Source: Shigella phage CT01. Taken from it: a stretch of 64,000 nucleotides of DNA. A program made the translations under genes and the position numbers. Shown here in pieces: positions 5,763-24,040 of the stretch. The notes below the pieces were generated by a model. That model had not been told where the DNA came from and did not search any database. It saw only the letters and a program-made list of their open reading frames with translations. Position 1 is the first letter of the stretch. Each line of letters opens with the position of its first letter. The stretch is from sequence record OK018184; one strand, given 5' to 3'.

Positions 5763-5840
5763 TTTCACCTCTTAGCTCAATTCATAGATCTATTATATCA
5801 TAATATTTGAAGATCTATCTTAAAGCATAGAGGATATCAG

Positions 5841-6651: not shown

Positions 6652-6685
6652 ACATTATCCTCAATTACATTAAAATTTTATTATC

Positions 6686-6706
6686 CAAAAAGGGCCGAAG
6701 CCCTTA
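6686..6706 (-). terminator. hairpin terminator
   Basis: AAGGGC-CGAA-GCCCTT stem-loop followed on the minus strand by UUUUGG and an AU-rich run. Confidence 0.55.
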
Positions 6707-6904
6707 GCTAAACTTTTTGGCACCCTTCCAGCCTTCGTACATCATTGCGGCTGATATTAATATTGCCCCTGAACAGCTTGAATATTTGTGATTCCAAAAC
6801 CAGTTCAGAAAAACTTCGTCATCAATACCTTGAGCTATCATATTTTCAAAGAACTGGCGACGAGCTTCAGCAATTCGTTGCGATAATTTAGATTCAGGAT
6901 TCAT
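6704..6904 (-). CDS. hypothetical protein
   Basis: 66-aa track ORF. Confidence 0.4.
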   Translation of the reverse strand: MNPESKLSQRIAEARRQFFENMIAQGIDDEVFLNWFWNHKYSSCSGAILISAAMMYEGWKGAKKFS

Positions 6905-7036
6905 TTAAATTTTCCAGTTACCGTTTTCATCAATGAATTTAATCCAGTCATTTACTGACCACTTGGTCGTATCGCCTTTTGGAGCAACATTTAAAGTGTA
7001 TAATCCTTGTTTAAAAAGCATGCGTTTGATATTCAT
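6905..7036 (-). CDS. small hypothetical protein (43 aa)
   Basis: ATG at 7036 preceded by GAGGAAAA; the track ORF 6905..7120 is a TTG-extended version. Confidence 0.35.
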   Translation of the reverse strand: MNIKRMLFKQGLYTLNVAPKGDTTKWSVNDWIKFIDENGNWKI

Positions 7037-7043
7037 ATTTTCC

Positions 7044-7337
7044 TCAGCTGTAACGATAGCACTCGTTTGATTTACGCTTAGCAACTCGTTGAGAAGTATT
7101 ATAATCAAAATCATCGTCAATGTAAACTGATTTTTTCAACTTTCTTACTTCACTACGCAATTGACGATTTAGCTCATCTTTAACTTCTGAATCAATGCCT
7201 TTCATTCTACGCCATTTATCAGAGCGAAAAATGTTTTCAACCATATCTTTATGACTTACACCATCAGGAGCTTTACGCTTTCCGAAATAGTCATAATCAC
7301 GTACTTTTAAATCTTTACGACGATACGTTTTACCCAT
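7044..7337 (-). CDS. hypothetical basic protein
   Basis: ATG at 7337 preceded by AAGGAA; lysine/arginine-rich product; the track ORF extends to a GTG at 7382. Confidence 0.4.
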   Translation of the reverse strand: MGKTYRRKDLKVRDYDYFGKRKAPDGVSHKDMVENIFRSDKWRRMKGIDSEVKDELNRQLRSEVRKLKKSVYIDDDFDYNTSQRVAKRKSNECYRYS

Positions 7338-7534
7338 GGAGTTTAATTTCCTTAGCAACTGAACTAAATACAGCACGGTCACAAATCATGTGTTTGTTCC
7401 ATTTAAGTACAGTATAATGAACATCTAGATCATCTACTGCTGTAACAATAACAATATGTCCGTTAACACGATAATACTGATCCCTTTTAATCTCTTTATC
7501 AACCATATCAAATCCTCAAAGGCAATTCATATGT

Positions 7535-7568
7535 TAATAATACCACAGTTTGAACTTCTTGTAAACAA
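7535..7568 (-). promoter_or_regulatory. T4 early-type promoter candidate
   Basis: Minus strand reads GTTTAC, an 18-nt spacer, then TATTAT. Confidence 0.4.
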
Positions 7569-7640
7569 CTTTGTGAAAATTATTTTAGGGAATGATAAGA
7601 AGCGAATGATAGTTAGAATGGTAATATACAGAATGTGAGA

Positions 7641-7664
7641 AAGAAAGGCCCAGAGGGCCCGTCT
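7641..7664 (-). terminator. hairpin terminator downstream of nrdH
   Basis: GGCCC/GGGCC stem-loop followed on the minus strand by a U-rich tract. Confidence 0.45.
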
Positions 7665-7987
7665 TAGTCTTCTATGATATCTCTATCATATCCAAGTGAA
7701 ATGAGAGTTTCTTTGAAGTGTTTAATGTTCTTTTGTCTAGAATCATTGATGAAAATGACTGGATAACGAATGTTAAGAGATGTAAATCCAGCGCGTTTAG
7801 CAAGAGATACAATCAGTGGACGATCATACTCAATCTTACCATTATTTGTAAGAACTTTATAGAAAGTAAAAGGAGCATTGAGCTCCTTTAGAAGTTTTGT
7901 AACTGATTGACATCCAGGACAACGACCTACTTCTTCGGGGATGCCATAGATTTCAATCTTATTCTTTAAGTTCGAGTTTTGTTCCAC
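7664..7987 (-). CDS. nrdH: glutaredoxin-like protein NrdH
   Basis: 107 aa with a CPGC redox motif; sits upstream of nrdG and nrdD. Confidence 0.6.
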   Translation of the reverse strand: MEQNSNLKNKIEIYGIPEEVGRCPGCQSVTKLLKELNAPFTFYKVLTNNGKIEYDRPLIVSLAKRAGFTSLNIRYPVIFINDSRQKNIKHFKETLISLGYDRDIIED

Positions 7988-8246
7988 GAGAAATAATTCC
8001 TTGATAAGCCCAGTATGGCGGGTTAACAGAATTCAGTTTGTTAGTAATTTTATCCAGACGCTCATTGAATTCGCTAGAAGATAAGCCTTTTTCTGGAGAA
8101 ATTAAGCTAATCACGAAAAATATAGCAATAAAAGGAATAAGGAAAATAGCTCCAACTGCCATAAACAAAAAGAACGTTACAGTTGTAAGAAAATCAGCTA
8201 AACCTTTACGAAATTTATACATATTTACCCTTAATTGATTAACCAA
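7959..8246 (-). CDS. hypothetical membrane protein
   Basis: 95 aa with a hydrophobic segment FLTTVTFFLFMAVGAIFLIPFIAIFFVISLI. Confidence 0.4.
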   Translation of the reverse strand: MVNQLRVNMYKFRKGLADFLTTVTFFLFMAVGAIFLIPFIAIFFVISLISPEKGLSSSEFNERLDKITNKLNSVNPPYWAYQGIISRGTKLELKE

Positions 8247-8336
8247 GCATTGATAAGTACTAAACTATACTGCGAATAAAATTCTGGACCAAAATGAAAA
8301 ATCATATCATTTATAGTATCAATAATATAATTCAAT

Positions 8337-8807
8337 TTAATCATGTTTCCACACCCCATCGGTATTTGACCAAAGTCGCTGATTATCTGAACCTCGCCAC
8401 AGCTTTTTGGTCGGAAGATTTTTCTCATACTTCCCATCAATAATAACATCAACATATTTAAGCATTTCTAGTTGTTTAATATCTTCAAACTTGTATCCTG
8501 TCCACAACCAAATGCTTTTATTGGGATAAAGATTTTTTACTGTTTGAACGATGCAATGAATAACATCTCGGTTATCAGGATAGAGAGGGTCTCCTCCAGT
8601 TATAGTTAATCCTTCTATATAATCATTATTCAAACATTCAATTAATTGCTCTAGTGTTTCACCGGTGAATGGAACGCCATTTCTAGCATTCCATGTTGAT
8701 TTATTATAACATCCTTCACATTTATGCAAACACCCCGTAACGAAAAGAACGACCCTGCATCCAGGGCCATTCACAAAATCACAGGGATAAAATCTATCGT
8801 AATTCAT
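8337..8807 (-). CDS. nrdG: anaerobic ribonucleotide reductase activating protein (radical SAM)
   Basis: 156 aa with the radical-SAM cysteine triad CLHKCEGC; 4-nt overlap with the nrdD stop. Confidence 0.85.
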   Translation of the reverse strand: MNYDRFYPCDFVNGPGCRVVLFVTGCLHKCEGCYNKSTWNARNGVPFTGETLEQLIECLNNDYIEGLTITGGDPLYPDNRDVIHCIVQTVKNLYPNKSIWLWTGYKFEDIKQLEMLKYVDVIIDGKYEKNLPTKKLWRGSDNQRLWSNTDGVWKHD

Positions 8808-10621
8808 TGGTGTTTAACCCTATGCATGATTTCTTTATTTTTGCCGAGATTAAATCCGCGTTCATTCGGATTTCCCAAATAACCACAAGTTCTTCTTATT
8901 GTGTTCATCTTTTTAGGATCAGTTTCTCCACAAATAGAACAAACAAATCCGTTTTCAGTAGGAGTCATTTCATGGGTACTTCCACACGTAAAACATTTAT
9001 CTACTGGCATGTTAACACCAAAATAATCTAAATGTTGTGCAGCATAATCCCATACAGCCTCAAGACCTTTTAGGTTATTTTTCATATCAGGAAGTTCAAC
9101 ATAAGAAATGTGACCGCCTGTCGCAATGAAATGATATGGGGCTTCGCGAGAAATCTTTTCAAACGGAGTAATATTTTCTTCTACTGAAACGTGGAAACTG
9201 TTAGTGTACCAGCCTTTATCAGTAACATCCTTTACACTTCCATATTTTTCGGTATCGAGTTTACAGAAGCGATAACACAGGTTTTCAGCAGGTGTAGAAT
9301 ACAAGCTAAAAGCAAAACCAGTTCTTTCAGTCCACTGCTTAAGATGTGCATTCATTTTAGTTAAAATTTCCTGTCCAATATCACGACCGACAAGAATATT
9401 CAATTCGTGAATACCAATGTATCCTAGGGATACTGAACTTCTACCGTTTTTAAATAACTCAATTATATCATCATCGGGTTTAAGACGAACCCCGAATGCA
9501 CCTTCTTGGTAAAGAATAGGAGCAACAGTAGCTTTAACTCCTTTTAATGAACTAATTCTACACATCAATGCTTCAAAACACAAATCCATTCGTTCATTGA
9601 ACAATTCGGCAAATTTCTGTTCATTGAACTGTGTTCCAATATAAGAATCTAATGCAATACGAGGAAGATTCAGTGTTACAACGCCAAGATTATTACGTCC
9701 ATCAAGAATTTCATTACCAGTCGAATCTTTCCATACACTTAAGAAACTGCGGCAACCCATTGGAGAAACAGGAACAGATGAACCGGTGATAGCTTTATTG
9801 TTCTTAGCCGAAATGATGTCAGGATACATTCTTTTACTTGCACACTCTAGAGCAAGCTGCTTAATATCATAGTTCGGATCGTCTTTATAAAGATTAACAC
9901 CTTCTTCAACGAACATAACAAGTTTAGGAAAAATAGGAGTTATCCCATCGCGGCCAAGACCTTTAATGCGATTTTTCAGAATTGCTTTCTGAATCATTCG
10001 TTCAGTCCAGTCAGTTCCCGTACCAAATGTAATTGTTACAAAAGGAGTTTGTCCGTTTGAACTAAAGAGAGTATTTACTTCATATTCATAAGCTTGGAAT
10101 GCATCGTATACGTCTTTTTCTGTTTTAGATTGGGCATAATTCAACGCGTCAGCGATTTGCCATTTTTCTGCGTCCTCAATATGTTTTGCATAGGTGCGTT
10201 TAACATAAGGAGAAAGTACTTTATCTACATTCGCAAAAGTCGTTCCGCCATATTGATGAGAAGCAACCTGCGCAGTAATTTGTGCCATAATTGCAGTAGC
10301 AACACCGATTGATTTAGGAGTTTCAATCTGTGCATTACCGAGCTTAAATCCATTCTCAAGCATTCCTTTTAAATCTACTAAACAGCAATTAGTAAATGGA
10401 AGAGCAGGGGAATAATCAATATCATGGAAATGGATAATTCCGCTTTCATGCGCTTTCATAATAAAAGACGGGACCATATTTTTGGCAATGTGTTTAGACA
10501 CAATACCAGCCATAAGGTCCCGTTGAGTTGGAAAAACACGAGAATCTTTATTAGCATTCTCGTTTAAAAGGTCTTTATTAGTTTTATGAATTAATCCTTC
10601 AATTTCTTTTTCAATCGTCAT
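8804..10621 (-). CDS. nrdD: anaerobic ribonucleoside-triphosphate reductase
   Basis: 605 aa with the C-terminal glycyl-radical motif RRTCGY and a C-terminal zinc ribbon; one continuous ORF. Confidence 0.9.
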   Translation of the reverse strand: MTIEKEIEGLIHKTNKDLLNENANKDSRVFPTQRDLMAGIVSKHIAKNMVPSFIMKAHESGIIHFHDIDYSPALPFTNCCLVDLKGMLENGFKLGNAQIETPKSIGVATAIMAQITAQVASHQYGGTTFANVDKVLSPYVKRTYAKHIEDAEKWQIADALNYAQSKTEKDVYDAFQAYEYEVNTLFSSNGQTPFVTITFGTGTDWTERMIQKAILKNRIKGLGRDGITPIFPKLVMFVEEGVNLYKDDPNYDIKQLALECASKRMYPDIISAKNNKAITGSSVPVSPMGCRSFLSVWKDSTGNEILDGRNNLGVVTLNLPRIALDSYIGTQFNEQKFAELFNERMDLCFEALMCRISSLKGVKATVAPILYQEGAFGVRLKPDDDIIELFKNGRSSVSLGYIGIHELNILVGRDIGQEILTKMNAHLKQWTERTGFAFSLYSTPAENLCYRFCKLDTEKYGSVKDVTDKGWYTNSFHVSVEENITPFEKISREAPYHFIATGGHISYVELPDMKNNLKGLEAVWDYAAQHLDYFGVNMPVDKCFTCGSTHEMTPTENGFVCSICGETDPKKMNTIRRTCGYLGNPNERGFNLGKNKEIMHRVKHQ

Positions 10622-11091
10622 TTTAAACTCTTTCTAAGCTGCTTCTTAAATGAAGCTATTAATTGTGTTTTAGTGTCAGATTCATTATATTCAAATCCTC
10701 TTTGAAGCATCTCAGCCATCATTTCCTCTTTTCCTAAACGAGAAAATTCCTTTGATTTATCTCCAACGAAGTTAGGGTGAATATTATTTTGGGTGTAATC
10801 GGATTTTAAATAAGTAAGTAAATTTTCTAACCATTCAAGATAATCAACACCTTGTCCCTTTAAGCCAGAACGATTAAATTTATGTTTCATTTGACCTTCT
10901 GCAGCATTGCAGAGATTACATAGCAACCCACGTACCTTTCCTGCTTTTGGTCCATTTAATTCATGGTCATGGTCAAGGTGATTAGCTTGAACATCAGGAT
11001 TTAGTTCTCGTTGGCAAATTAAGCATTTACCGTTTTGTGCATTATAAAATTTTTGTTTTTCTTCTTTGTACAATTTGCCAGTCAATAACAT
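10618..11091 (-). CDS. 49: endonuclease VII (Holliday-junction resolvase)
   Basis: 157 aa with zinc-binding CLICQ and CNLCN pairs; matches T4 gp49 as recalled. Confidence 0.8.
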   Translation of the reverse strand: MLLTGKLYKEEKQKFYNAQNGKCLICQRELNPDVQANHLDHDHELNGPKAGKVRGLLCNLCNAAEGQMKHKFNRSGLKGQGVDYLEWLENLLTYLKSDYTQNNIHPNFVGDKSKEFSRLGKEEMMAEMLQRGFEYNESDTKTQLIASFKKQLRKSLK

Positions 11092-11356
11092 AATAAACCC
11101 TTACCTTAAATAGATAAGGGTATTTATTATTTTCAAGTATTAAAATGCTCGTTCAGAAAAAGAAATTTGAGTTTCAAGAAGTTCTCGTTGGCAAATTAAG
11201 CATTTACCGTTTTGTGCATTATAAAATTTTTGTTTTTCTTCTTTGTACAATTTGCCAGTCAATAACATAATAAACCCTTACCTTAAATAGATAAGGGTAT
11301 TTATTATTTTCAAGTATTAAAATGCTCGTTCAGAAAAAGAAATTTGAGTTTCAAGC
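11003..11356. repeat. perfect tandem duplication, two units of 177 bp
   Basis: 11003-11178 is identical to 11180-11355; the unit holds the last codons of the upstream ORF, the intergenic region and the first 29 codons of gene 49. Confidence 0.9.
11140..11268 (-). pseudogene. duplication-derived chimeric ORF (gene 49 codons 1-29 fused to the last 13 codons of the upstream gene)
   Basis: Hand translation across the junction gives MLLTGKLYKEEKQKFYNAQNGKCLICQRELLETQISFSERAF. Confidence 0.4.
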
Positions 11357-11781
11357 CATTCAATATATTCTGCTGCAGCTTGCATCAAATTTCCTTCATA
11401 GCCATCGTTATTTTCTTGTGCAGCTAATTTAGCTAATGCATATGAAATACGTTCACCCTGAAAAGCGGCTTTAGGTTTATGAATAGCTTGATCAACTCGT
11501 TCTACAACTTCTTCAATTTCGCCATTTTCTACTGATTCAGTATTCCACAAGCACCAATACGTAATTGGCTTATCATAGATGTTAATAACCTTTCCGTCAG
11601 AAAGTTCAATTTCAATAATTCCAGTATCAGGTTCTATATCATCTTCACATTCTTTTGCAAGTTCACGAACTTTAAAGACAGTACCTGCACTAAGTTCCGG
11701 CCAGTAATTACACAACCCTTTATCAGCACGATTAATTCTAAACCACTTATCTACTGTAATCATGTCCCATCTCCATATCAA
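11317..11781 (-). CDS. hypothetical protein (by position possibly the pin protease-inhibitor homolog)
   Basis: 154-aa ORF directly upstream of gene 49; assignment is by synteny only. Confidence 0.4.
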   Translation of the reverse strand: MIWRWDMITVDKWFRINRADKGLCNYWPELSAGTVFKVRELAKECEDDIEPDTGIIEIELSDGKVINIYDKPITYWCLWNTESVENGEIEEVVERVDQAIHKPKAAFQGERISYALAKLAAQENNDGYEGNLMQAAAEYIEWLETQISFSERAF

Positions 11782-11886
11782 TTATGTCATTTATTGTAGG
11801 TTCATTATATACTGTTTCTTCATCAGTGTAAACCGGTTCTTCCGGCTCTGGCTCTACTGTTTCCCATCTAGCCGCCCACCAAGGTT

Positions 11887-12207
11887 TTATAGCGTAATCC
11901 ATTCTCGTATTGTCTGAGTTACTACACGTTCACGGGGCTCGACTAGTTCAACAGTCGGAACTGCATAATACCAGTCAGAATGGTAAGAACCTGAGCGAGA
12001 TTCATTTACAGACACATGTACATTATGTTTTGGACTAAAATAAACACACTGACGATATTGACATTTGCCATCTTGCACCCAGTCTTCTATTTCGACAGGT
12101 TTAAGATAATCCGAAAAATCGAAATCATAGTTTTCTGAAAATGCATCATGGTCTTCGATGATTTCGCTCAGAACTGCATCAACATCTAATTTATTTTCAA
12201 TAGTCAT
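11887..12207 (-). CDS. hypothetical protein
   Basis: 106-aa acidic ORF. Confidence 0.45.
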   Translation of the reverse strand: MTIENKLDVDAVLSEIIEDHDAFSENYDFDFSDYLKPVEIEDWVQDGKCQYRQCVYFSPKHNVHVSVNESRSGSYHSDWYYAVPTVELVEPRERVVTQTIREWITL

Positions 12208-12217
12208 TTGTCACCAC

Positions 12218-12427
12218 TTAATTTCGCAATTTATTAAGTTCTTCATAATCAATCCAGGATTCTAATCCTGATGGCAAATCAGATTCAATTTCCCAAAGAA
12301 GCTCTTCAATTTTCTGAAGACGATCTAATTCTTCAGCTGGAATAGTAACCATTGACGGAGTTCTTGATACACTAATATCGTAAATCATATTTACCCCAGT
12401 TTGACCATACAATCGCCGTATTTCCAT
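12218..12427 (-). CDS. hypothetical protein
   Basis: 69-aa ORF. Confidence 0.4.
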   Translation of the reverse strand: MEIRRLYGQTGVNMIYDISVSRTPSMVTIPAEELDRLQKIEELLWEIESDLPSGLESWIDYEELNKLRN

Positions 12428-12606
12428 TTAGAAATAGACTTTTCACCATTAGAATAATAAACTTCTAGTTTAGCGCGGCCATTTTTAATTTGAATAACCT
12501 TTGCTGTCATTAAAGTTCCATACCCATAATAAACTGCAACCTCATCCCCCACATATACCGCGCTTCCGCGGTAGTCATGGATATAATCAGTTCCTTCAAG
12601 CATCAT
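12391..12606 (-). CDS. hypothetical protein
   Basis: 71-aa ORF overlapping the nrdC stop by 4 nt. Confidence 0.4.
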   Translation of the reverse strand: MMLEGTDYIHDYRGSAVYVGDEVAVYYGYGTLMTAKVIQIKNGRAKLEVYYSNGEKSISKWKYGDCMVKLG

Positions 12607-12866
12607 TTAAAGTATTCCCGCAATTGGTCAAATCCACCAATATGACTTCCATCAGGAGCAAATACCTGAGGCATCGTCAATCCGATTTGAGTATCACGAC
12701 CTAGTTTAGTCAGAAGCTCAGCAATTTTCTCATCATCAAAAACACCTTTTTCCGGCATAATATTGATAAATTCAAACGGCTGTTTCTTCACAGTCAAAAG
12801 ACGTTTTGCATTATCGCAATACACACATTTATGGATGTTGCTATCATAACCATATACTTTAAACAT
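12603..12866 (-). CDS. nrdC: glutaredoxin/thioredoxin NrdC
   Basis: 87 aa with a CVYC active-site motif; matches T4 NrdC as recalled. Confidence 0.75.
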   Translation of the reverse strand: MFKVYGYDSNIHKCVYCDNAKRLLTVKKQPFEFINIMPEKGVFDDEKIAELLTKLGRDTQIGLTMPQVFAPDGSHIGGFDQLREYFK

Positions 12867-12867
12867 A

Positions 12868-13110
12868 TTATTCCTTAATTCCTAGTACTTGTTTAAAAGT
12901 CTCGTCGTAATCAAGACTTTGACCTGTTTGTTCTTTATGTTTGTATATAATATCACTTACTTCTGATAGCATATTTTTATATGAACGAGTTAAAGCAGAT
13001 TTAAGCACACTATATCTATCAGGAAATTTACCATGTTCATTATAATAAGCTATTGCTAATTCACGGACTGCCTTTTCAGCAGTCTCCATATATTCTTTAC
13101 GCTTTGTCAT
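12868..13110 (-). CDS. hypothetical protein
   Basis: 80-aa ORF. Confidence 0.45.
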
Positions 13111-13414
13111 TTTCTTCTCGGTTAAATCGGTGTTTACAATGACGACATTTATAACGAAGAATACTAGTTTGCCAATGAATCAATTGAACCTGTTCAGTAC
13201 CACATTTTGGGCAGTTCGGAACATTCTTAGAAGCCCTTTCGCGGCGTTCAACCATAACCATAATGGCATCCCAAGCAGGAGGTTTAAAGTCTAGATCGTC
13301 ATCGCCATGAATCTTTCCACGCATTTCTAGATCGTCTTCTTCACCAGCCATAATAATTTTAATTAGACTGGAATTACTTGAAGCTGCAATATCTTCTAAT
13401 AAGCGCTTTTTCAT
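13097..13414 (-). CDS. zinc-ribbon protein
   Basis: 105 aa with CPKCG...CRHCKH cysteine pairs. Confidence 0.5.
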
Positions 13415-14340
13415 TTCAGTACCTCAATAGCATCACGTAAACCATTTGCTTTTGCATTAAGAGCTTTTAACAATTTGGTATGTTCGGCAATCTGAGCTTC
13501 AACTTCAATCAAACGAGCATTGAGATATTCACGTTCTTCGCTCAGGTTATCAACCTTTTCTACTTTAGATTCTTTTACAACTGGCTTATATGTATTAGGG
13601 TTCTTCAGTTTAATTAGAATGCGTGAACTGTATAACATTGAACCATTATCTTCGGTTTCATCATACATTTCCACTACGTCCATCATCTCCACCATCGTGC
13701 AGAGTTTATAAGACAGCGAACGAATAGTTTTGTTATGCTTATTAATTTCTCTAGCTGTCATGGTGCCGAGATTACGTGAGTAATAATAAGGAACCTGGAT
13801 ATTAATTAATACTGATGAACCACCTGGCTTGTGTGTTACTTCATCAGCAATAACCCAATCCTTAACATGAACTGTATTTGTACGGTCATCGCCTGCGGTA
13901 AATAGTTTGCGAGCATGCTTAAAAAGCATATTCACTTGGTCATTGAATTGACAAGCAAATTTATCAGCAAATTTAGTTTCAGGAATGGTAGATAACCAAT
14001 CAGCCAAATGGGTCTTTTTAACATCGTTAACAATAGTAAATTCAACCAAATCAGTTATAGATGTCTCAGATTTAATAAAGCTCGGCTTCATAAAGTTTTT
14101 AATGTTATCACGAGCTATCACAGAAGATAGTAATCGGGAACGTTTGAACCACTCTAGCAAAGAACCAAGAGAATGTGAATACGCATTTTGTGTATCTTTA
14201 CAAATATGGTTTTCCCATCCAATATAGTCTAAAAAATCACGAAGAATATTATTGATTACTGCTCTATGTCCTATCTGATAATTACGATGTTTAGTAATAA
14301 GACTATCAAAATAATCAATATAATGTTTACGAGTTTTCAT
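13411..14340 (-). CDS. hypothetical protein, member 1 of a four-gene paralog array
   Basis: 309 aa; N-terminal motif RSRLLSSVIARDNIKNF; C-terminal heptad-like coiled coil. Confidence 0.55.
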   Translation of the reverse strand: MKTRKHYIDYFDSLITKHRNYQIGHRAVINNILRDFLDYIGWENHICKDTQNAYSHSLGSLLEWFKRSRLLSSVIARDNIKNFMKPSFIKSETSITDLVEFTIVNDVKKTHLADWLSTIPETKFADKFACQFNDQVNMLFKHARKLFTAGDDRTNTVHVKDWVIADEVTHKPGGSSVLINIQVPYYYSRNLGTMTAREINKHNKTIRSLSYKLCTMVEMMDVVEMYDETEDNGSMLYSSRILIKLKNPNTYKPVVKESKVEKVDNLSEEREYLNARLIEVEAQIAEHTKLLKALNAKANGLRDAIEVLK

Positions 14341-14392
14341 GTTCTTCTCACTTGGTTAATGATTTATACTCCGAGCCATCCTTGGCTTTAAA

Positions 14393-15394
14393 TTACTTAA
14401 TTAACTGTAAAGCTTGTTCAAGACGATCCAGACGATTAACAGATTCTTCCCAAATCCTTTTAGCCTGCTCATATTCTTTCTGCGCTTTATTAGAAATTTC
14501 TAGAACTTCTTTATAAGCCTTTTCTAGTGCAATAACTTCTGGACGAATTTCTACAGGTTCAGGCGAATCATCAAGATTATCCATTAGTTCCTCAAGTGTA
14601 ATTTCTTCTTTAGGAGTATTCACAATTTCATCACATTTTTGTTGGTAAATTTCTTTATCAGTCGGTGAGTACGCACATTTCACTTCACGAAGACTAACTA
14701 CAATTTTATATCCTTCCCAACCGCATATATTCTTAAAAGGATACGTATGAATATTTTCTACTGTTTCCATACAAAGTAATGCGGTTTCTAATTGACGAGT
14801 TATAGTGCTAGCAATTGAGAAAAATTTATTAATATTCCTTTGGTTAGTTTCTGGTGTAAAAAATCCATAATTCACAAAAATAGATACTTTATTTTTATCA
14901 AGTTCATATTCTTTTATGATAATCATATCAGAAGCCAAAGGATGAATTTGACGATAATCGCCATAACATAATTTAGAAGCTGATTTTAGAATCTGTCCTT
15001 TGAAAAGCCTGAAATTACTAATCCAACGACGAGTAAAAATATTCTCAGGGTCTTCTTTATTATTAAGATGATAAGAATTAACATCACCGAACCAATTATA
15101 TCCTACTACATCTTTGGTTCGTTTAATTTCTTTCCCAAAATTACCAAGAATATCCCGATTAACCAAATATGAAAGAAGACGAGACTCTTTAAAGGTTTTC
15201 TTGATAACATCTTTATCTACACGACTAGAAATTTTACGAATTTCATGAATAAATTTAGTAGAAGAAACAATACCTGCATCAACACTATTGAGCCATTGAT
15301 TGATAATAGAAATAACGCTATTTTGACCAAACATCGGTATAGCTTTATCATCAATAACACTATTGAATGATTTGATATATTCGTTACGAGTCAT
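14393..15394 (-). CDS. hypothetical protein, paralog array member 2
   Basis: ATG at 15394 preceded by GAGGAG; motif ESRLLSYLVNRDILGNF; C-terminal coiled coil. Confidence 0.5.
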   Translation of the reverse strand: MTRNEYIKSFNSVIDDKAIPMFGQNSVISIINQWLNSVDAGIVSSTKFIHEIRKISSRVDKDVIKKTFKESRLLSYLVNRDILGNFGKEIKRTKDVVGYNWFGDVNSYHLNNKEDPENIFTRRWISNFRLFKGQILKSASKLCYGDYRQIHPLASDMIIIKEYELDKNKVSIFVNYGFFTPETNQRNINKFFSIASTITRQLETALLCMETVENIHTYPFKNICGWEGYKIVVSLREVKCAYSPTDKEIYQQKCDEIVNTPKEEITLEELMDNLDDSPEPVEIRPEVIALEKAYKEVLEISNKAQKEYEQAKRIWEESVNRLDRLEQALQLIK

Positions 15395-15419
15395 ATTAAT
15401 CTCCTCAGTAGAAAGTAAG

Positions 15420-15455
15420 AACATTATACCACATCCTTGTGGCAAAGTAAACTAG
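15420..15455 (-). promoter_or_regulatory. T4 early-type promoter
   Basis: Minus strand reads GTTTAC, an 18-nt spacer, then TGGTATAAT. Confidence 0.5.
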
Positions 15456-16480
15456 TTCAGTGCATTTAGTGCATTGTTCAGTTTAGAACGTTGCTTTGTC
15501 AGATTTTGAACCCTTGACTGAGCTTGTTCTAACACCTTTTCAGCTTCTAGCACTTCATTGGTCGCTTTAACGAGTTCATCATCTACTGCCTTAAGAGACT
15601 TCTCAATCGCGTCAGCGTGCCATTTTTCTACAGGTTTAAAATTTGAATTTTCAGTAGGAAGAAAACTCACTTTATTAAGTTTACATGCATCTATATTGCT
15701 TGAGCTATACATCCAAAATTTAGGATCGTTTGATGAGTAATTGGATAAATTTAAATTTAAGTTATCTTGCACTTCTTGCTTTTTCTCTTGCGGGACTTCG
15801 TCCTTTCTCAAAAAATCGTATTTAAATGAAACGATCATATCAAGTTCATACGTTGTTGTGTCTAATTTAAATCGTTCAAAACGAGGTAAAATCTTAGATT
15901 GAACAGCAGCAACAACATCCATATACTTAAATGCTTCTGTCAACTGCGATTTAAGGCATTCGCAAATTGAAAGAGAATTTTTTGTATTAGGTTTAAAGCT
16001 AATTCGTGCAGTTCTGTTATTTTCTTTTAATGGTCTTACTTCCATCTGAAGAGTATAACCATCAAATTTCAGGTTCTTTAAGTTAATATCAGAACCTTTC
16101 AATCGACTCGCAGTTGATAAAATTTGCTTTAATTGTCTACGGAACAGAGCAATAAATCTCCATTCAATACGATAATGATTTGGATTGAAAAATCCAGATG
16201 ATAAATCGACCTTACTTTGACCAACGCCTTGAACAAATAGAGGATTTTTATAATCAATAGTTTTACAGAAATCGGTGAGTTGCTCACGAGCAGTCATTTG
16301 TGTAATATACCCCGCTTTACTAAAATTACGCATCCATTCACTGCTATTCGTATACTTAAAGTGATGAATAACACGATTAACTTTATCAGGGTCTAAATTA
16401 TTTTCACACAAAAATGTCATAACATCACGAGTATAGCTGGCATTACGAACCATATCTTCAATTTGAGAACGAGTTTTCAT
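15452..16480 (-). CDS. hypothetical protein, paralog array member 3
   Basis: 342 aa; starts MKTR like member 1; C-terminal coiled coil. Confidence 0.55.
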   Translation of the reverse strand: MKTRSQIEDMVRNASYTRDVMTFLCENNLDPDKVNRVIHHFKYTNSSEWMRNFSKAGYITQMTAREQLTDFCKTIDYKNPLFVQGVGQSKVDLSSGFFNPNHYRIEWRFIALFRRQLKQILSTASRLKGSDINLKNLKFDGYTLQMEVRPLKENNRTARISFKPNTKNSLSICECLKSQLTEAFKYMDVVAAVQSKILPRFERFKLDTTTYELDMIVSFKYDFLRKDEVPQEKKQEVQDNLNLNLSNYSSNDPKFWMYSSSNIDACKLNKVSFLPTENSNFKPVEKWHADAIEKSLKAVDDELVKATNEVLEAEKVLEQAQSRVQNLTKQRSKLNNALNALN

Positions 16481-17850: not shown

Positions 17851-18377
17851 TATGCGAGTACCGTCTTTAACCGTTCTTCAAACTTCCGAAGAGTATTTTG
17901 GCGTTCAGCTCTTTGCTTTTTGTAAGTTTCAATACGCTCTGAAATGAGAGTGTATCGTTCATTTACTGATTCTTTCATAAAATCAGGAATTTCACGAGAA
18001 GCTTTAATCTCGTCAAATTTATCAATAACAGCTTGCTCTTCAGCAATTAAGTTATCATACATTAAAATATCTTTCTTGATAAACTCAATATCTTCTTGAG
18101 TTACACGAGATAACTTAGATGCTTTATCCTTTTTGTACTGTTCATTAGTATCACGAGACCAGTGTAATGTACGATTTTTATTCGTATTCTTGTAAATTTC
18201 TACAATACCAATCTCATCGATAATAACGATCCAATTCCAACGGGATTTGTAAATTTGTCCTCCATCAACTGTGATTTCACCTCCGATTGAGATGTCGTTA
18301 AAGAACTTGCTTTGTGCTTCAGATTTAAATTTACCATCGTTGTAATTTACCAAGTTGAAAATATCTTTAGCGTTCAT
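17850..18377 (-). CDS. hypothetical protein
   Basis: 175-aa ORF with a charged helical C-terminus. Confidence 0.5.
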   Translation of the reverse strand: MNAKDIFNLVNYNDGKFKSEAQSKFFNDISIGGEITVDGGQIYKSRWNWIVIIDEIGIVEIYKNTNKNRTLHWSRDTNEQYKKDKASKLSRVTQEDIEFIKKDILMYDNLIAEEQAVIDKFDEIKASREIPDFMKESVNERYTLISERIETYKKQRAERQNTLRKFEERLKTVLA

Positions 18378-18402
18378 TTTCTGTTCCTCCGTAGTTGATA
18401 GT

Positions 18403-18437
18403 TGTATAGTACCATAGAGGAACAGTCTTGTAAACCA
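18403..18437 (-). promoter_or_regulatory. T4 early-type promoter
   Basis: Minus strand reads GTTTAC, an 18-nt spacer, then TGGTACTAT. Confidence 0.45.
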
Positions 18438-18752
18438 CTAAAAGAAACTTCTTTCACAATTTTTTCCACTGAACCATGCGCTCACTGCTTTCTTAGTCTC
18501 AGGAGCAGTGTTATCCATAAACCATTCAAAGGCAGCCTTTTTATGATTCTGGAGGGCTTCTCGGGCTTTAATCTGCTCACGGTCTATTAACACTAACATA
18601 TGAGCCTTTCTTGTCACCATGGGCTTCTTATGATTTTTTGAATACTCCCAGTCATTTGTCCATCGCATTGTCGTTGCGAACTTAAATACTGCTTCTTTAA
18701 TTTTAGTTTCGTAAATTTCACGAGCCTTTGAGTATAACATCATTACCTCCAT
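18438..18752 (-). CDS. hypothetical protein
   Basis: 104-aa ORF. Confidence 0.45.
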   Translation of the reverse strand: MEVMMLYSKAREIYETKIKEAVFKFATTMRWTNDWEYSKNHKKPMVTRKAHMLVLIDREQIKAREALQNHKKAAFEWFMDNTAPETKKAVSAWFSGKNCERSFF

Positions 18753-18841
18753 TCACCAGTTTAATTCTAGTTATCTTTTTAATGGCAGTCCATATAATCT
18801 ATTTCTGAACTGCCTTTTTGTCATAGAAGTCCTCTTATGAA

Positions 18842-19810
18842 TTATTTCAGAAGAGTAACCTCAGCAATTTCTTCCCAACCGTTTTTGTCGGTCATAATAA
18901 AGTCAGCAAGATAAAGAGCAGTACGCAGTGAAACATTGCGTAAACGATTAACATTAACTTTCATCCATGATAATGCTTTATAAGTTTCTTCATCAGAAAG
19001 ACCGCGCTTTTGCATCATGTCAGTTGAAAGAATAACATCTTCAACCCTGACCATAATTTCTTCATTAGTGTGAACACCCAAATCCAAATAAACCGAGCGG
19101 GACACTAATGCTTGTAAATGTGGAGCAAGTTTAGTACCACGGTCTAATTCGCGGTCAATGTCAACGTTTGTGATAAAAACAATCGTTCCTTTAAATTCAA
19201 ACTCACGCTCAATGCCTTTTTCTTCTAAGTAAGAAGATGCGGTGCTCCAGCAGACTTTACGGGTCTCTCCAGTGTCCAGAGCAGCTTTCAGAAGATTAAG
19301 AATGTCCATATCAGAGAAAACATCCACATCATCAATCAAAAGGACAGAATTCTCTTCACGATTATTCCAAAGCTGTTCATAAAGACCGATACCAGAGATT
19401 TTACCATTAATGCTTTTATATTCAATGTATCCATTATCATTTGCTTTATTCAAAGCTTTATCTAAAGAATACGTTTTACCAATACCCGCCGCACCAGAGA
19501 TAATTAATGAACGAATATTTCCGTTAATAATACCATTCGTCATCATTCCCATAACATTAAATCTTTTATTAATGCGGGTTTTCATATCTTCATATGATTC
19601 TTTAACTTCTTCAACTTTTACACCATCATATGAAATGTCTGATTTGTAAACCCAAACACCGCGACGCTTACCGTCAATTTCAACAAAAACTTTACCATCT
19701 CCTTGTGCATCTACCGGAGCATTATCTGGGAACCATTCACCTAAGAGCTCAAAAGTTCCAGAGATTTCTTTACCGAAGTAGATACCCTTATTGATAGTTA
19801 CAGTTTTCAT
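18842..19810 (-). CDS. AAA+/P-loop ATPase
   Basis: Walker A GAAGIGKT and Walker B LLIDDVD; ATG at 19810 preceded by GGAGAATAAA. Confidence 0.6.
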   Translation of the reverse strand: MKTVTINKGIYFGKEISGTFELLGEWFPDNAPVDAQGDGKVFVEIDGKRRGVWVYKSDISYDGVKVEEVKESYEDMKTRINKRFNVMGMMTNGIINGNIRSLIISGAAGIGKTYSLDKALNKANDNGYIEYKSINGKISGIGLYEQLWNNREENSVLLIDDVDVFSDMDILNLLKAALDTGETRKVCWSTASSYLEEKGIEREFEFKGTIVFITNVDIDRELDRGTKLAPHLQALVSRSVYLDLGVHTNEEIMVRVEDVILSTDMMQKRGLSDEETYKALSWMKVNVNRLRNVSLRTALYLADFIMTDKNGWEEIAEVTLLK

Positions 19811-19844
19811 TTTATTCTCCAATTTTACATTTGTTTTGATAGGG

Positions 19845-19878
19845 TAATAGTATCACACTACTACCCTGCTGTAAACAA
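19845..19878 (-). promoter_or_regulatory. T4 early-type promoter
   Basis: Minus strand reads GTTTAC, an 18-nt spacer, then TGATACTAT. Confidence 0.45.
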
Positions 19879-19879
19879 T

Positions 19880-20143
19880 TTATTTTAATGTTTGCCAAAT
19901 TTTTACTGCTTCGCGACGAGATACTTCTACGGCGCCAAGTTCTATAGCTTTTTGGCGTCGCCGAGCGTGTAAGTCATAATGTTTAATGCGTTTATCTTGA
20001 AACCAAGAACGTTTCATTCCTATTGCTTCTGCCATTTCATGAAGCTCTTCAATATCTCCATCAGTGAACATATGACAATTTTTAGTTGGATGACCGCGAA
20101 GTTTCCATCCATGATTCATTAAAACATCTACGTAAACTGTCAT
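19880..20143 (-). CDS. hypothetical protein (87 aa)
   Basis: ORF MTVYVDVLMNHGWKLRGHPTKNCHMFTDGDIEELHEMAEAIGMKRSWF...; its start region is tandemly duplicated. Confidence 0.5.
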   Translation of the reverse strand: MTVYVDVLMNHGWKLRGHPTKNCHMFTDGDIEELHEMAEAIGMKRSWFQDKRIKHYDLHARRRQKAIELGAVEVSRREAVKIWQTLK

Positions 20144-20306
20144 TGATTCTTCTCCAAATACATTCCTATTGCTTCTGCCATTTCATGAAGCTCTTCAATA
20201 TCTCCATCAGTGAACATATGACAATTTTTAGTTGGATGACCGCGAAGTTTCCATCCATGATTCATTAAAACATCTACGTAAACTGTCATTGATTCTTCTC
20301 CAAATA
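20015..20306. repeat. perfect tandem duplication, two units of 146 bp
   Basis: 20015-20160 is identical to 20161-20306; the unit holds the RBS and first 43 codons of the 87-aa gene plus the last 17 nt of the upstream gene. Confidence 0.9.
20140..20289 (-). pseudogene. duplication-derived truncated copy of the 87-aa gene (43 codons plus YLEKNQ)
   Basis: Second ATG at 20289 with the same RBS; the frame ends at a TGA overlapping the intact gene's ATG. Confidence 0.4.
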
Positions 20307-20435
20307 AGTTTCGATAATTTTCTGAGCGAGATAAACTGCATTATCTTCAGTTGCATCTTCTAAGAAACTTTCAAAACACTCTGAAATTTCTTCTGTGTCA
20401 ATCAACTTTTTTACTTCAATTGGTGTAATTTTCAT
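20286..20435 (-). CDS. small hypothetical protein
   Basis: ATG at 20435 gives MKITPIEVKKLIDTEEISECFESFLEDATEDNAVYLAQKIIETYLEKNQ; the longer track ORF would overlap the promoter. Confidence 0.4.
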   Translation of the reverse strand: MKITPIEVKKLIDTEEISECFESFLEDATEDNAVYLAQKIIETYLEKNQ

Positions 20436-20471
20436 TTTGTTTTTCCGTTTAAGTGTTTGTTTTGATAGTTG

Positions 20472-20504
20472 TATAGTACCATAAAGCTTTATGCTTGTAA
20501 ACAA
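20472..20504 (-). promoter_or_regulatory. T4 early-type promoter
   Basis: Minus strand reads GTTTAC, a 17-nt spacer, then TGGTACTAT. Confidence 0.45.
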
Positions 20505-20526
20505 TTTTGTGAAAAATTTTTGAAAT

Positions 20527-20552
20527 AAAAAAGGGAGCCCGAAGGCTCCCTA
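20527..20552 (-). terminator. hairpin terminator
   Basis: GGGAGCC-UUCG-GGCUCCC stem-loop followed on the minus strand by UUUUUUAUUU. Confidence 0.6.
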
Positions 20553-21566
20553 TCATTTATAATAACTTCGGTGGTTTTCAAGATAAACCCTCTCAAGGAA
20601 GTCATCCCAAAAACCCATGTCTACTTTTTGCTGCATACCGTTCTTAGAAGCTTCAGTAGATGCTGCTTCTACTTGATCGACCACATCTTCCAAAAACTCT
20701 TGAACCGTTTTAAATGGATGTTTACCCAACTTCACGTCGAGAATAAATGGAGCATCTTGGAGTGGATAAACCAAGTCACCAGTTTTGTAAATTTCCAATA
20801 GTTGGAGTCCACCACGGCAAGCATGACTCAGAGCTTTCCAGTCAATACCTTCATTGGCTTCGGCCTTACGAGCACGTTCACCGTATTCAGCATCTAATTT
20901 GTTCAGTGACTGCTTAAGCTCAATAAGAGAAAGCGTTGTCTGATATTTACGACCCAACACTGTGTAGAACGTCTGTGGGCCTGTTTTCTCATGATTATGG
21001 AATACCCATTCGCAGAATTCGTTCTCTGGAAGACGATGCTTAATATCTTCAACTTTAGTACGACGTTGTCCTTGTGTTCCATCTTCTCGGTAATCAACCC
21101 ACTGATCGGGGATTTGATTAACTACTTTCAATACATCACGTAATGCAGCCAAACGAGAACCCTTAACACCATATTTAGAAGCTTGCTTGCGGACATATCC
21201 TAAATAGGATTTCATGTTAGTCGTATAAAAACGAGAACGATTGTCTTGAATAAACTTCCATACATCAGGCAAATCAGATTTAACCACTAGCTCAGGTGGA
21301 GTGTGAAGCATATCCAATGCTACAGTTTCACCATCTGCTGCTAATTTAAAGAAATACTTAAGACTGTATAGTTCATGGTCAATATCATCTTTAGTGTTTT
21401 TAGATGATGTGTTGTTAGTGTTTTTACTCATATGCTCTTTAACATTTCCGATAAGAATATCACGAGCAGGAGGAACAAAGATTTCTTTAAAATCTACATC
21501 AGATTCTGGAGTAGAAGTTCCATAAAGATGACTACCGAAATAGCTTTTCATTACTGTTTTCATCAT
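20553..21566 (-). CDS. Pol-beta-superfamily nucleotidyltransferase-like protein
   Basis: N-terminal GS-x10-DVD motif (GSHLYGTSTPESDVDF) typical of the nucleotidyltransferase fold; 337 aa. Confidence 0.55.
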   Translation of the reverse strand: MMKTVMKSYFGSHLYGTSTPESDVDFKEIFVPPARDILIGNVKEHMSKNTNNTSSKNTKDDIDHELYSLKYFFKLAADGETVALDMLHTPPELVVKSDLPDVWKFIQDNRSRFYTTNMKSYLGYVRKQASKYGVKGSRLAALRDVLKVVNQIPDQWVDYREDGTQGQRRTKVEDIKHRLPENEFCEWVFHNHEKTGPQTFYTVLGRKYQTTLSLIELKQSLNKLDAEYGERARKAEANEGIDWKALSHACRGGLQLLEIYKTGDLVYPLQDAPFILDVKLGKHPFKTVQEFLEDVVDQVEAASTEASKNGMQQKVDMGFWDDFLERVYLENHRSYYK

Positions 21567-22024
21567 TCAGCCTTATATTCAATAACAGGACATACTTTAG
21601 CTTTACGCGTTTTTAAAAATTCGACGATAATAGATTTCTTGGGTTGAATAGGAGGTAAACCTTTATACGCCCTATCAATATTTTCTACATGTAAAGCATA
21701 ATCCTTTTTCCATTTATAATCTTTATATTTTTCATGTAGTTGTGCAGGAATAACAAATGAACCGATAATAAGTAAAACAAGAAAAATGGCAAGTATAAAT
21801 GCTGATGGAATAAGAGTCCATAAACTACCAAAAATAAGCCATTTCTGCATGATTTCTGCGCAGATGATAGTTAGACCTGCGAGTATAGTACATCCGAAAA
21901 AAGAAACGAAAAATGTAGGAATAACAATAGACCAAAAATACGCGCACAGTGTCTTAGGTCGTTTCCATTCATCATTAAACATTTTGAATAATTTATAGTG
22001 CCAAGAGCTTTCATTAATAATCAT
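21563..22024 (-). CDS. hypothetical integral membrane protein
   Basis: 153 aa with several hydrophobic segments. Confidence 0.5.
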   Translation of the reverse strand: MIINESSWHYKLFKMFNDEWKRPKTLCAYFWSIVIPTFFVSFFGCTILAGLTIICAEIMQKWLIFGSLWTLIPSAFILAIFLVLLIIGSFVIPAQLHEKYKDYKWKKDYALHVENIDRAYKGLPPIQPKKSIIVEFLKTRKAKVCPVIEYKAE

Positions 22025-22026
22025 AA

Positions 22027-22548
22027 TTATCCTTTCATTGAAGGTGTAACAGTTGTTAAATACTTAATCATAGCCTCAGCTTCTGATTTTGATAATGAAA
22101 TTTCTCCATTGTTTTGACGAATAGAAATAAAATCAGGATGACGGTCACCACCAGCTTTTAAAACACACATATAAGTATCAGTTTCATCTTCAATATTTGA
22201 AATGATTGAAGCAGTTCCACATGAATGTGGTTTTTGATAAATCAATGCAGCTTTTCTTCCACCGTTTGACTGTTCATAAACTTTTAACACATCAAACAAA
22301 TCACTTCTTTTATCAATAGCTAAGATGTTATTTTCATCTTCAATGTTAAATCCTTCGGATACTTCATAAAGTGTCACCCATAAATCACCGATGTCAATAA
22401 CAGCATTTACTTTTCCATGACTTTCAAGAGCACGGCAAATTTTCTTGATTTCGTCATAACTCATTTTAATAATATCATCTCCTTGAATAAGGAAGATGTC
22501 ATTTTTAAATTCAACACGAATTAAACCACTTTCACTTGAAATAAACAT
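22027..22548 (-). CDS. hypothetical protein, paralog A
   Basis: 173 aa; C-terminus ISLSKSEAEAMIKYLTTVTPSMKG resembles that of the next ORF. Confidence 0.5.
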   Translation of the reverse strand: MFISSESGLIRVEFKNDIFLIQGDDIIKMSYDEIKKICRALESHGKVNAVIDIGDLWVTLYEVSEGFNIEDENNILAIDKRSDLFDVLKVYEQSNGGRKAALIYQKPHSCGTASIISNIEDETDTYMCVLKAGGDRHPDFISIRQNNGEISLSKSEAEAMIKYLTTVTPSMKG

Positions 22549-22554
22549 ATTTCC

Positions 22555-23121
22555 TCACTTTGAAATCATAGTTGGAATGACAGAATCAAGATAAGTCTTT
22601 AGCGCAATAGCTTCGTCTTTGGTAAATGTGACAATATGTGATCGAAAATCATCAATTTGACGAATAGTTAAGACATCTCCCTCTTCATAACATTTTGATA
22701 CATTTAAAAGAGTTTCATCATTCTGATCGCACTGATCGCAATCGTTAGTAATAATAGCATTGCAATTTTTGAGCCATTTTAAACTATGTTTTCTTTCATT
22801 AGAATAATAAAAATATTTAATCTTAGCTATAAAACTATCCCAATGAATAACTGATAAACACATTGACTCACTTTTAATATTAAATCCTGGGCATGAAGAA
22901 TAAAAATGAATTTTGTGCTCATCATTGATGCTTACTATTTTATCAGTATAAGGATATTCAATTTGGGTTAAATGAATGATTTCACTAGGCGTAAAATACA
23001 GCATATCGTCTTCTTGCGTCAAACGATACATGTTATTTACTTTTTCTATAGCCAATTCACCAAAAAGCGGACTAACTTCTAATACTAATCGTTTCATATT
23101 GATTCTCTTCGACTCACTCAC
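22555..23121 (-). CDS. hypothetical protein, paralog B
   Basis: 188 aa; C-terminus VTFTKDEAIALKTYLDSVIPTMISK. Confidence 0.5.
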   Translation of the reverse strand: MSESKRINMKRLVLEVSPLFGELAIEKVNNMYRLTQEDDMLYFTPSEIIHLTQIEYPYTDKIVSINDEHKIHFYSSCPGFNIKSESMCLSVIHWDSFIAKIKYFYYSNERKHSLKWLKNCNAIITNDCDQCDQNDETLLNVSKCYEEGDVLTIRQIDDFRSHIVTFTKDEAIALKTYLDSVIPTMISK

Positions 23122-23288
23122 AATTACATACTCCTTTGAATAATATCAATAATGTTGTTCACTAGATTATAAGTAAACATTGGGTAATTATATTGAATCA
23201 TCACATACACAACAAACAAAACTTTCATTCTCTTCTCCTTGGCAGTTGACAAGATTACTATATCATAACCTTGCCAACTTGTAAACCA

Positions 23289-23462
23289 TTAAATGACGTT
23301 TTCAATAAAATTCTGAAGCTTTGTGTGAGCATCAACCATGATTTTCATTTCTTCCTTTGCGAAAGCTGTACCTCTTTCTCGAGCAGAATACTCATAGTCA
23401 GAAACTGCATTAGCATATTCTTCAATTAGCTTCATTAAAAACATCTGCTTTTCAGTTTTCAT
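23289..23462 (-). CDS. small hypothetical protein (57 aa), not in the ORF track
   Basis: ATG at 23462; hand translation MKTEKQMFLMKLIEEYANAVSDYEYSAREGTAFAKEEMKIMVDAHTKLQNFIENVI (approximate). Confidence 0.35.
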   Translation of the reverse strand: MKTEKQMFLMKLIEEYANAVSDYEYSARERGTAFAKEEMKIMVDAHTKLQNFIENVI

Positions 23463-23646
23463 TATTCCACCTAATCATTTCAAGATATTGAACTAACTTA
23501 GCTTTGGATTTATCCAAATCCTTTTTAGCTGCTTCTATACCATCGTATGAATATCCTTCACAGTGCTCAACTGCTAATTGATATGAATCTATTTCAACAT
23601 CACGTGCTAATTTAATGATTTTTTCAAACTGTTCGTGTGTCAGCAT
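23452..23646 (-). CDS. small hypothetical protein
   Basis: 64-aa helical ORF. Confidence 0.4.
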   Translation of the reverse strand: MLTHEQFEKIIKLARDVEIDSYQLAVEHCEGYSYDGIEAAKKDLDKSKAKLVQYLEMIRWNNEN

Positions 23647-23648
23647 AC

Positions 23649-23852
23649 TTAAACTCTCGTATTATGATCGATAATTTCATCAAGAAACATATCTAAAGCT
23701 TCTACAGCATTATCAACTTTAGCTTCAAGTTCTTCAGCGCCTTTATTTGCAATGCCTGCCGAAAACCAAGCAAAGTCACTAAGTTCCTCGTCTGCTTTGC
23801 GAATTAAAGCTACCAATTCTTTAATTTTATCTGCTTGTTCGATACTAATCAT
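23649..23852 (-). CDS. small hypothetical protein
   Basis: 67-aa acidic helical ORF. Confidence 0.4.
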   Translation of the reverse strand: MISIEQADKIKELVALIRKADEELSDFAWFSAGIANKGAEELEAKVDNAVEALDMFLDEIIDHNTRV

Positions 23853-24040
23853 TATTCAACCACATATGAAAGAGAGAATATTGCACACGCCATATGAGTT
23901 GCAGCTTCATCACACATATCATAACGTTTCTTAAGAAGTTCTTCAAGTTCTTCACTAGTAACATCATCCATGTTGACGAAAAAATCACCATTAATGATGA
24001 CGTAGATATTTCCTTCTTGATTAAGTGCTTCAATTTTCAT
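23852..24040 (-). CDS. small hypothetical protein
   Basis: Internal ATG at 24040 placed just downstream of the promoter; the track ORF extends to 24187. Confidence 0.4.

Follow-up and report, generated by a model that had tools for sequence, protein, structure and literature searches.

nrdC.11 of Shigella phage CT01 encodes an RlaP-family nucleotidyltransferase, a putative RNA 3'-end filler of phage tRNA repair

The nrdC.11 locus and its neighbours

The DNA analysed here, hereafter called the window, is a stretch of 64,000 nucleotides from Shigella phage CT01 (sequence record OK018184). It comes from a Tequatrovirus and is 95–99% identical over its whole length to P922, the nearest complete phage genome; the 4.4-kb neighbourhood of the gene under study is 97–98.5% identical to hundreds of T4-like coliphages. 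A 337-aa ORF runs from ATG to stop at 20553–21566 on the minus strand (stop codon 20553–20555), a strand that an earlier note on this DNA had not given. Over 336 aa, the protein shares 97% identity with T4 NrdC.11 (NP_049709, T4p095), which is found in the syntenic position, and it is 100% identical to BD_178 of P922. These identities, together with the ORF list and the Pfam RlaP and PHROG 388 matches described below, mark the feature as the CDS of an nrdC.11-type RlaP nucleotidyltransferase (NTase). The first ATG (21566) overlaps the TGA of the upstream gene (ATGA), and a Shine-Dalgarno sequence (AAGG) is spaced 4 nt from this ATG and 7 nt from the second ATG (21563). Because the distance of the AAGG suits the second ATG better and the T4 annotation uses the same start, the true start is probably 21563, which gives a product of 336 aa as annotated in T4.

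nrdC.11 is the last gene of a leftward unit, which begins with two y05I-like genes, continues with a membrane-protein ORF and nrdC.11 and ends at a terminator. The genes upstream of nrdC.11 (21563–23121, minus strand) are the membrane-protein ORF at 21563–22024 (phrog_944) and the tandem y05I-like paralogs at 22027–22548 and 22555–23121, which match Pfam T4_y05I_N/C, a 'putative transcription factor'. A sigma70-like promoter candidate, a consensus match only, is located at 23285–23257. The terminator scan placed an intrinsic terminator, an 8-bp GC-rich stem followed by TTTTTTAT, at 20551–20532 on the minus strand, where it begins 2 nt past the nrdC.11 stop and separates the unit from the DUF4031 and nrdC.10 genes; a terminator is annotated at the same site in phage G9062. 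An Rfam scan of 18000–24000 returned one sub-threshold chance match only (L20 leader, 27 bits against a threshold of 59). The T4 gene likewise lies in the nrdC-mobD-rI-tk early region with nrdC.10 downstream, and its product is annotated as 'nucleotidyltransferase' or as 'uncharacterized 38.9 kDa protein'. However, T4 carries the HNH homing endonuclease gene mobD directly upstream of nrdC.11 and nrdC.10 114 nt after it, whereas the window has no mobD, has the membrane-protein ORF and the second y05I-like paralog in its place, and has the DUF4031 gene and small ORFs between nrdC.11 and nrdC.10.

The earlier note had placed the NTase gene next to an ATPase gene. This neighbour, described as a '326-aa ATPase' (18842–19822, minus strand), is nrdC.10. 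The two genes are not direct neighbours: nrdC.10 follows nrdC.11 at a distance of 730 nt, past the terminator and three small ORFs. To describe the genomic context of the family, we used a sample of 80 loci from bacteria or archaea, each with a full-length co-linear homolog (32–54% identity), and 80 viral loci. nrdC.10 accompanied the NTase gene in 36 of the viral loci and in none of the cellular ones, always downstream and at a spacing of 100–2,272 nt. When loci were sorted by NTase identity, nrdC.10 was present in 32/38 at ≥ 60%, in 4/17 at 50–60% and in 0/22 below 50%. The adjacency is confined to close relatives and therefore reflects lineage synteny only. Functional coupling of nrdC.11 and nrdC.10 was considered and rejected, given that the adjacency occurs only in close Straboviridae and that a terminator lies between the two genes in the window. 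nrdC.10 itself gave only sub-threshold P-loop matches (nSTAND3, AAA_16, AAA_14 and AAA_22; 21–22 bits) and a full-length match to PHROG 1250 (unknown function), and it is confined to close T4 relatives.

The interval between the two genes, which in T4 is just a 114-nt gap, holds an 87-aa DUF4031 (PF13223) gene at 19880–20143 (minus strand) and an exact 146-bp tandem duplication (20015–20160 and 20161–20306). The duplication creates a chimeric 49-aa ORF (20140–20289, minus strand) that joins residues 1–43 of the DUF4031 protein to the YLEKNQ tail of the ORF at 20286–20504. P922 has no such duplication, and judged against that genome only the window carries the partial copy of DUF4031; the best megablast matches, too, align at this site in two pieces. 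The duplication could be a recent genuine event or an assembly artefact.

Family, catalytic residues and predicted fold

The protein matched Pfam RlaP (PF10127, 'RNA repair pathway DNA polymerase beta family'; RlaP stands for RNA-ligase-associated Pol-beta) with 44.2 bits against a gathering cut-off of 23 (E = 2.6e-11), over an alignment limited to aa 7–135 and to profile positions 23–142 of 249, the N-terminal half of the model. PHROG 388 ('nucleotidyltransferase') matched end to end (E = 1e-136), and NCBIfam and PADLOC searches gave no matches. An alignment was built from the window protein and 108 diverse representatives at 34–55% identity (n = 109); 108 of these 109 homologs also matched PF10127, and two touched the NTP_transf_2 model. 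A HMMER scan of 1.84 billion cluster representatives recovered 3,439 relatives at E ≤ 1e-3, of which 825 also passed E ≤ 1e-30; most were full length (300–350 aa). Among 50,697 phage records, 1,504 contained homologs at E ≤ 1e-10, and the phages concerned include those of Escherichia, Klebsiella, Aeromonas, Acinetobacter and Vibrio. The gene product is almost certainly an RlaP-family NTase, and the gene, as a T4 nrdC.11 ortholog, is already known: it is a catalogued member of a recently characterised family.

A match between nrdC.11 and COG3541 'nucleotidyltransferase' was published in 2006 (PMC1524935). According to later accounts (PMC12776372, PMC7824862), RlaP was named by Burroughs & Aravind in 2016, who predicted that it replaces nucleotides lost from cleaved RNAs ahead of ligation. 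A December 2025 preprint (Carruthers, Fatma & Huang, PMC12776372) reported that the RlaPs of P. fluorescens and P. aeruginosa add one to two NMPs or dNMPs at RNA 3'-OH ends, prefer Mn2+ and favour the 5' half of a nicked-tRNA mimic. In total RNA these enzymes labelled rRNA- and tRNA-sized species, including full-length tRNAs, with all four NTPs, and they partly rescued aminoacylation of a tRNA lacking one anticodon-loop nucleotide. RlaP had little NTP selectivity in vitro, and therefore the correct product would be expected in only a minority of repaired tRNAs (PMC12776372). The same preprint placed 'T4NrdC.11' in cluster 5 of the PF10127 SSN, labelled 'of unknown function', and the assayed Pseudomonas enzymes in cluster 1a.

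The N-terminal G[SG]-x9-13-D-x-[DE] motif pointed out in the earlier note is real. Residues 11–25 (21492–21536, minus strand) read GSHLYGTSTPESDVD, followed by F26, and match G[SG]-x10-D-x-D as G11-S12-x10-D23-x-D25. The bare G[SG]…DxD pattern is weak, since it was present in 9.5% of composition-preserving shuffles of the protein, and a 601-aa ORF unrelated to it, at 53842–55647 of the window, contains the pattern two times. The motif observation stands because independent evidence, namely Pfam, PHROG, residue conservation and the NTase-fold model, supports it. G11, S12, Y132, H248, R251 and P268 were invariant in 109/109 aligned homologs. The catalytic acidic residues, whose loss would have spoken against the assignment, have been retained: D23 and D25 were each found in 108/109 homologs and D63 in 107/109 (Glu in the other two). 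In addition, D85 was kept in 104/109 and K244 in 108/109. D63 lies in D61-I-D63-H-E65 (21372–21386, minus strand), which falls on modelled beta-strand 62–68; judging from the strand topology of the NTase fold, it is probably the third metal-binding carboxylate (h[DE]h). The Pol-beta signature of RlaP (hG[GS], [DE]h[DE]h plus a third carboxylate, summed up for the family as 'three strictly conserved aspartates') is thus present, with D63 as the presumed third ligand. A second conserved block, the clade signature DWKALSHACR (aa 242–251; 20814–20843, minus strand), contains K244, H248 and R251 and is probably the NTP- or RNA-binding face of the cleft.

An AlphaFold2 model computed from the 109-sequence alignment had a mean pLDDT of 94.4 and a pTM of 0.84. 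It consists of four parts: an N-terminal Pol-beta NTase alpha/beta domain (~aa 1–118; 21213–21566, minus strand) with strands 3–10, 24–31, 45–49 and 62–68 plus helices; a long helix (119–150); a beta-rich insert (~aa 152–212; 20931–21113, minus strand); and a C-terminal helical domain modelled as a HEPN-like bundle (aa 214–337; 20556–20927, minus strand), made up of helices 214–309 and a terminal helix at 317–336. The best PDB structural matches of the model were all Pol-beta NTases, which, with the Pfam and PHROG matches, bears out the fold proposed in the earlier note. When viral models in BFVD were searched by fold, this two-domain NTase turned up in many large phages. At the sequence level, neither the single protein nor the 109-sequence profile retrieved anything but chance matches from the PDB (E > 0.4), and the PfRlaP crystal structure was not among them. 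The modelled NTase domain, the helical region 214–309 and the terminal helix 317–336 agree with the text description of PfRlaP, a comparison made by description only. Taken together, these results demonstrate the membership of NrdC.11 in the family, its intact catalytic residues and its fold.

The Pseudomonas RlaPs share with the phage protein the PF10127 match and a trio of conserved aspartates, and by their published description they resemble the model in having an NTase domain at the N-terminus, a helical domain at the C-terminus and a terminal helix. They differ from the phage clade in their SSN cluster (1a versus 5) and in the beta-rich insert, ~60 aa long, of the phage clade; in addition, the phage gene is in no operon with a ligase. 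In the AlphaFold2 model the insert forms strands at 155–159, 165–169, 185–192, 196–203 and 206–209 and lies outside the Pfam RlaP match; it is confidently modelled, poorly conserved, and present but variable in cellular homologs. We consider it a candidate substrate-specificity element of the clade. Since the phage clade carries this insert, its substrate specificity may differ from that of the assayed enzymes. The insert and a C-terminal domain beyond the reach of the Pfam model set the T4-type clade apart from those enzymes, and there is a slim chance that it even has a different acceptor or product: it might modify particular host or defence RNAs at their 3' ends, or use HalB-like chemistry to make short oligonucleotides that disturb host immune signalling; if so, NrdC.11 would be a new kind of phage anti-defence enzyme and not a repair 'filler'.

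Two further functions known from Pol-beta NTases were considered. ANT(4') kanamycin nucleotidyltransferase and the MNT-HEPN minimal NTases, which act on small-molecule or protein substrates, are 9–11% identical to NrdC.11. A KNTase/MNT-type enzyme would AMPylate a host protein (e.g., a HEPN toxin) or a metabolite. This function is very unlikely for NrdC.11: the likeness is at the level of the fold (5–16% identity), NTP_transf_2 touched 2/109 clade members, the Pseudomonas RlaPs left DNA and E. coli proteins unlabelled (PMC12776372), and the genomic context is one of RNA repair. It is extremely unlikely that NrdC.11 resembles CD-NTases or Hailong HalB as a nucleotide-signal synthase or decoy, with cyclic or linear oligonucleotide products that trigger or subvert the immune signalling of the host. 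HalB (PDB 9dbh) did align with the model, but at 16% identity and over 146/337 residues, under half of the protein. HalB, a synthase of 217 aa, makes tyrosine-primed poly-dA and is paired with the HalA channel, whereas nrdC.11 has neither a HalA-like partner nor a comparable context; the phage protein does not conform to the HalB pattern of an NTase of ~217 aa with a HalA membrane channel and tyrosine-primed oligo-dA synthesis. Nor does it show the features of CD-NTase/cGAS-DncV-like enzymes: CD-NTase, SMODS and Mab-21 gave no Pfam or PADLOC match, none was among the top structural matches, and no effector gene is adjacent. Family context and biochemistry indicate RNA 3' ends as the acceptor.

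Linkage to RNA-repair genes

Among the 80 cellular loci of the context sample, 19 had RNA-repair genes within 10 kb of the homolog, and in 16 of these 19 the repair gene was on the same strand and ≤ 1.5 kb away, several at a distance of 0–60 nt. A rough upper bound for chance, estimated for four single-copy genes, a 20-kb window and a 4-Mb genome, is ~2% of loci. The linked genes encoded RtcB (10 loci), the Pnkp kinase-phosphatase-ligase (9), Hen1 (7), Ro60/TROVE (4), T4-type Pnk (4) and an Rnl1-like ligase (1). Representative linked genes were confirmed by Pfam (RtcB 2e-132, PNKP_ligase 1e-168, Hen1_L 3e-112 and vWA_Ro60/TROVE). The repair-linked cellular homologs retain every key residue, and the DWKALSHACR signature is conserved across all RtcB- and Pnkp-linked ones. 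The Pseudomonas RlaP genes adjoin RtcB, as do cellular members of the phage clade. These results demonstrate that the cellular orthologs of nrdC.11 are linked to repair genes. One uncultured Nitrosospira contig carries a compact RNA-repair island at 5558–16000, with Ro60/TROVE, RtcB, the RlaP homolog, Hen1 and Pnkp on one strand.

In the viral half of the sample, Pnk, an Rnl1-like ligase or RtcB was nearby in seven loci, and the distribution of RlaP in jumbo phages was reported to mirror that of RNA ligases (PMC7824862). No operon with a ligase or kinase was found for nrdC.11 in the window or in T4. The association with RNA-repair genes that characterises RlaP thus holds for the clade, but neither the window nor T4 shows it at the level of an operon. 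P922 encodes Rnl1 (98% identical to that of T4), Rnl2 (98%) and Pnk (83%). The phage repair partners Pnk, Rnl1 and Rnl2 lie outside the window, and in T4 rnlB, pseT and rnlA are 52–82 kb from nrdC.11.

The context also bears on whether the enzyme could serve host takeover by general RNA tailing or blocking, in which 3' additions to host or phage mRNA, rRNA or tRNA would lead to decay or a block, as with MenT-type NTase toxins. The labelling of rRNA- and tRNA-sized species by RlaPs with all four NTPs would suit such an activity, as would the location of nrdC.11 in an apparently early, non-essential region, with the promoter candidate at 23285–23257 and a terminator at the gene end. Against it, the operons that house the cellular orthologs are repair operons (RtcB, Pnkp/Hen1, Ro60) and not toxin-antitoxin pairs, PADLOC gave no match, the assayed enzymes add just 1–2 nt, and blocked tRNAs would hurt the phage's own translation. 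We therefore regard tailing as distinctly unlikely.

The putative repair role and the phage tRNA genes

T4 Pnk and Rnl1 formed the first RNA-repair system to be discovered. RloC excises the wobble nucleotide and has been proposed to defeat repair by T4 Pnk/Rnl1 (PMC2610378). A 2010 review of T4 asked whether any phage repairs the RloC lesion and recorded that E. coli lacks RloC (PMC3014915). Whether a phage can repair tRNAs that have also been robbed of a nucleotide by an RloC-type nuclease is a long-standing question (PMC3014915, PMC2610378), to which NrdC.11-type RlaPs are a published candidate answer, carried by about 1,500 sequenced phage genomes. A T4 deletion from nrdC.11 to mobD.3 is viable (PMC9825161), which fits an accessory counter-defence gene.

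By analogy with the assayed enzymes, the phage protein probably adds nucleotides to RNA 3' ends. The best reading, which we hold with modest confidence, is that of an RNA 3'-end 'filler' acting in phage tRNA repair with Pnk, Rnl1 and Rnl2; nucleotide-excised tRNA as its biological target can be put forward only tentatively. Points against the reading are the separate SSN cluster of the assayed enzymes, the limited reach of the Pfam match, the lack of an operon with a ligase or kinase in the phage, the absence of RloC from E. coli and the low NTP selectivity of RlaP. In such a pathway, the NTase domain (G11-S12, D23-x-D25 and D63) would bind two divalent metals and the NTP, and the cleft between it and the C-terminal HEPN-like domain, which carries the H248/R251 face, would hold the RNA 3'-OH end. 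The reaction, to go by the two Pseudomonas RlaPs, would most likely extend the 3'-OH of broken RNA by one or two NMPs without a template. Acting with the healing and sealing enzymes Pnk, Rnl1 and Rnl2, encoded elsewhere in the phage genome, NrdC.11 could in this way put back nucleotides that host anticodon nucleases (e.g., RloC) had trimmed from cleaved tRNAs, ahead of sealing by Rnl1/Rnl2. With the nucleotides lost to RloC-type trimming restored, religation would yield a full-length anticodon loop. This repair hypothesis is already in the literature, so the finding brings nothing new to the biology. Where it helps in practice is annotation: 'RlaP-family RNA nucleotidyltransferase (NrdC.11)' should replace the names now in the records. 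Errors of name propagation are widespread in public records, many GenBank entries among them: NrdC.11 orthologs go by 'thioredoxin', a name taken from the nrdC prefix, by 'putative HNH homing endonuclease' or by 'hypothetical', and a y05I-like neighbour is mislabelled as 'molybdopterin-guanine dinucleotide biosynthesis protein MobD'.

The window holds 16 tRNA genes, and encoded CCA is absent only from tRNA-Pro, present in two identical copies, and tRNA-Gln. The earlier note had counted two tRNAs without CCA; this holds for the species (Pro and Gln), and the genes concerned are three of the 16, since tRNA-Pro occurs twice. The tRNA-Pro and tRNA-Gln genes raise the question of whether the enzyme matures or repairs tRNA 3' ends (CCA), either of these phage tRNAs or of toxin-trimmed ones, and the Pseudomonas RlaPs do label full-length tRNAs and add 1–2 nt at any RNA 3'-OH (PMC12776372). 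Class II CCA-adding enzymes likewise belong to the Pol-beta superfamily and extend tRNA 3' ends in a template-independent way. However, their head-neck-body-tail architecture has no counterpart in the NrdC.11-type protein. PolyA_pol (PF01743) was not matched in the Pfam scan, CCA-adding enzymes were absent among the top structural matches, and the protein has neither the PF01743 head nor the neck and body domains of class II CCA-adding enzymes and poly(A) polymerases. We regard a CCA function as unlikely. The earlier note had left the choice between a tRNA-repair and a nucleotide-signalling enzyme; RNA 3'-end repair is favoured by the RlaP family and its repair-gene linkage, and the ideas of CCA addition and of cyclic nucleotides found no support.

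The tRNA genes lie at 37294–38697 on the minus strand and include Asn(GTT) and Tyr(GTA); tRNA-Gln abuts tRNA-Leu without a spacer. The cluster contains an exact 576-bp tandem duplication (~37531–38106 and ~38107–38682), by which the series Met(CAT)-Thr-Ser-Pro-Gly-Leu occurs twice with 100% identity and the total reaches 16 genes. The closest relatives carry a single copy of the 576-bp unit (1,025 bp versus 1,601 bp).
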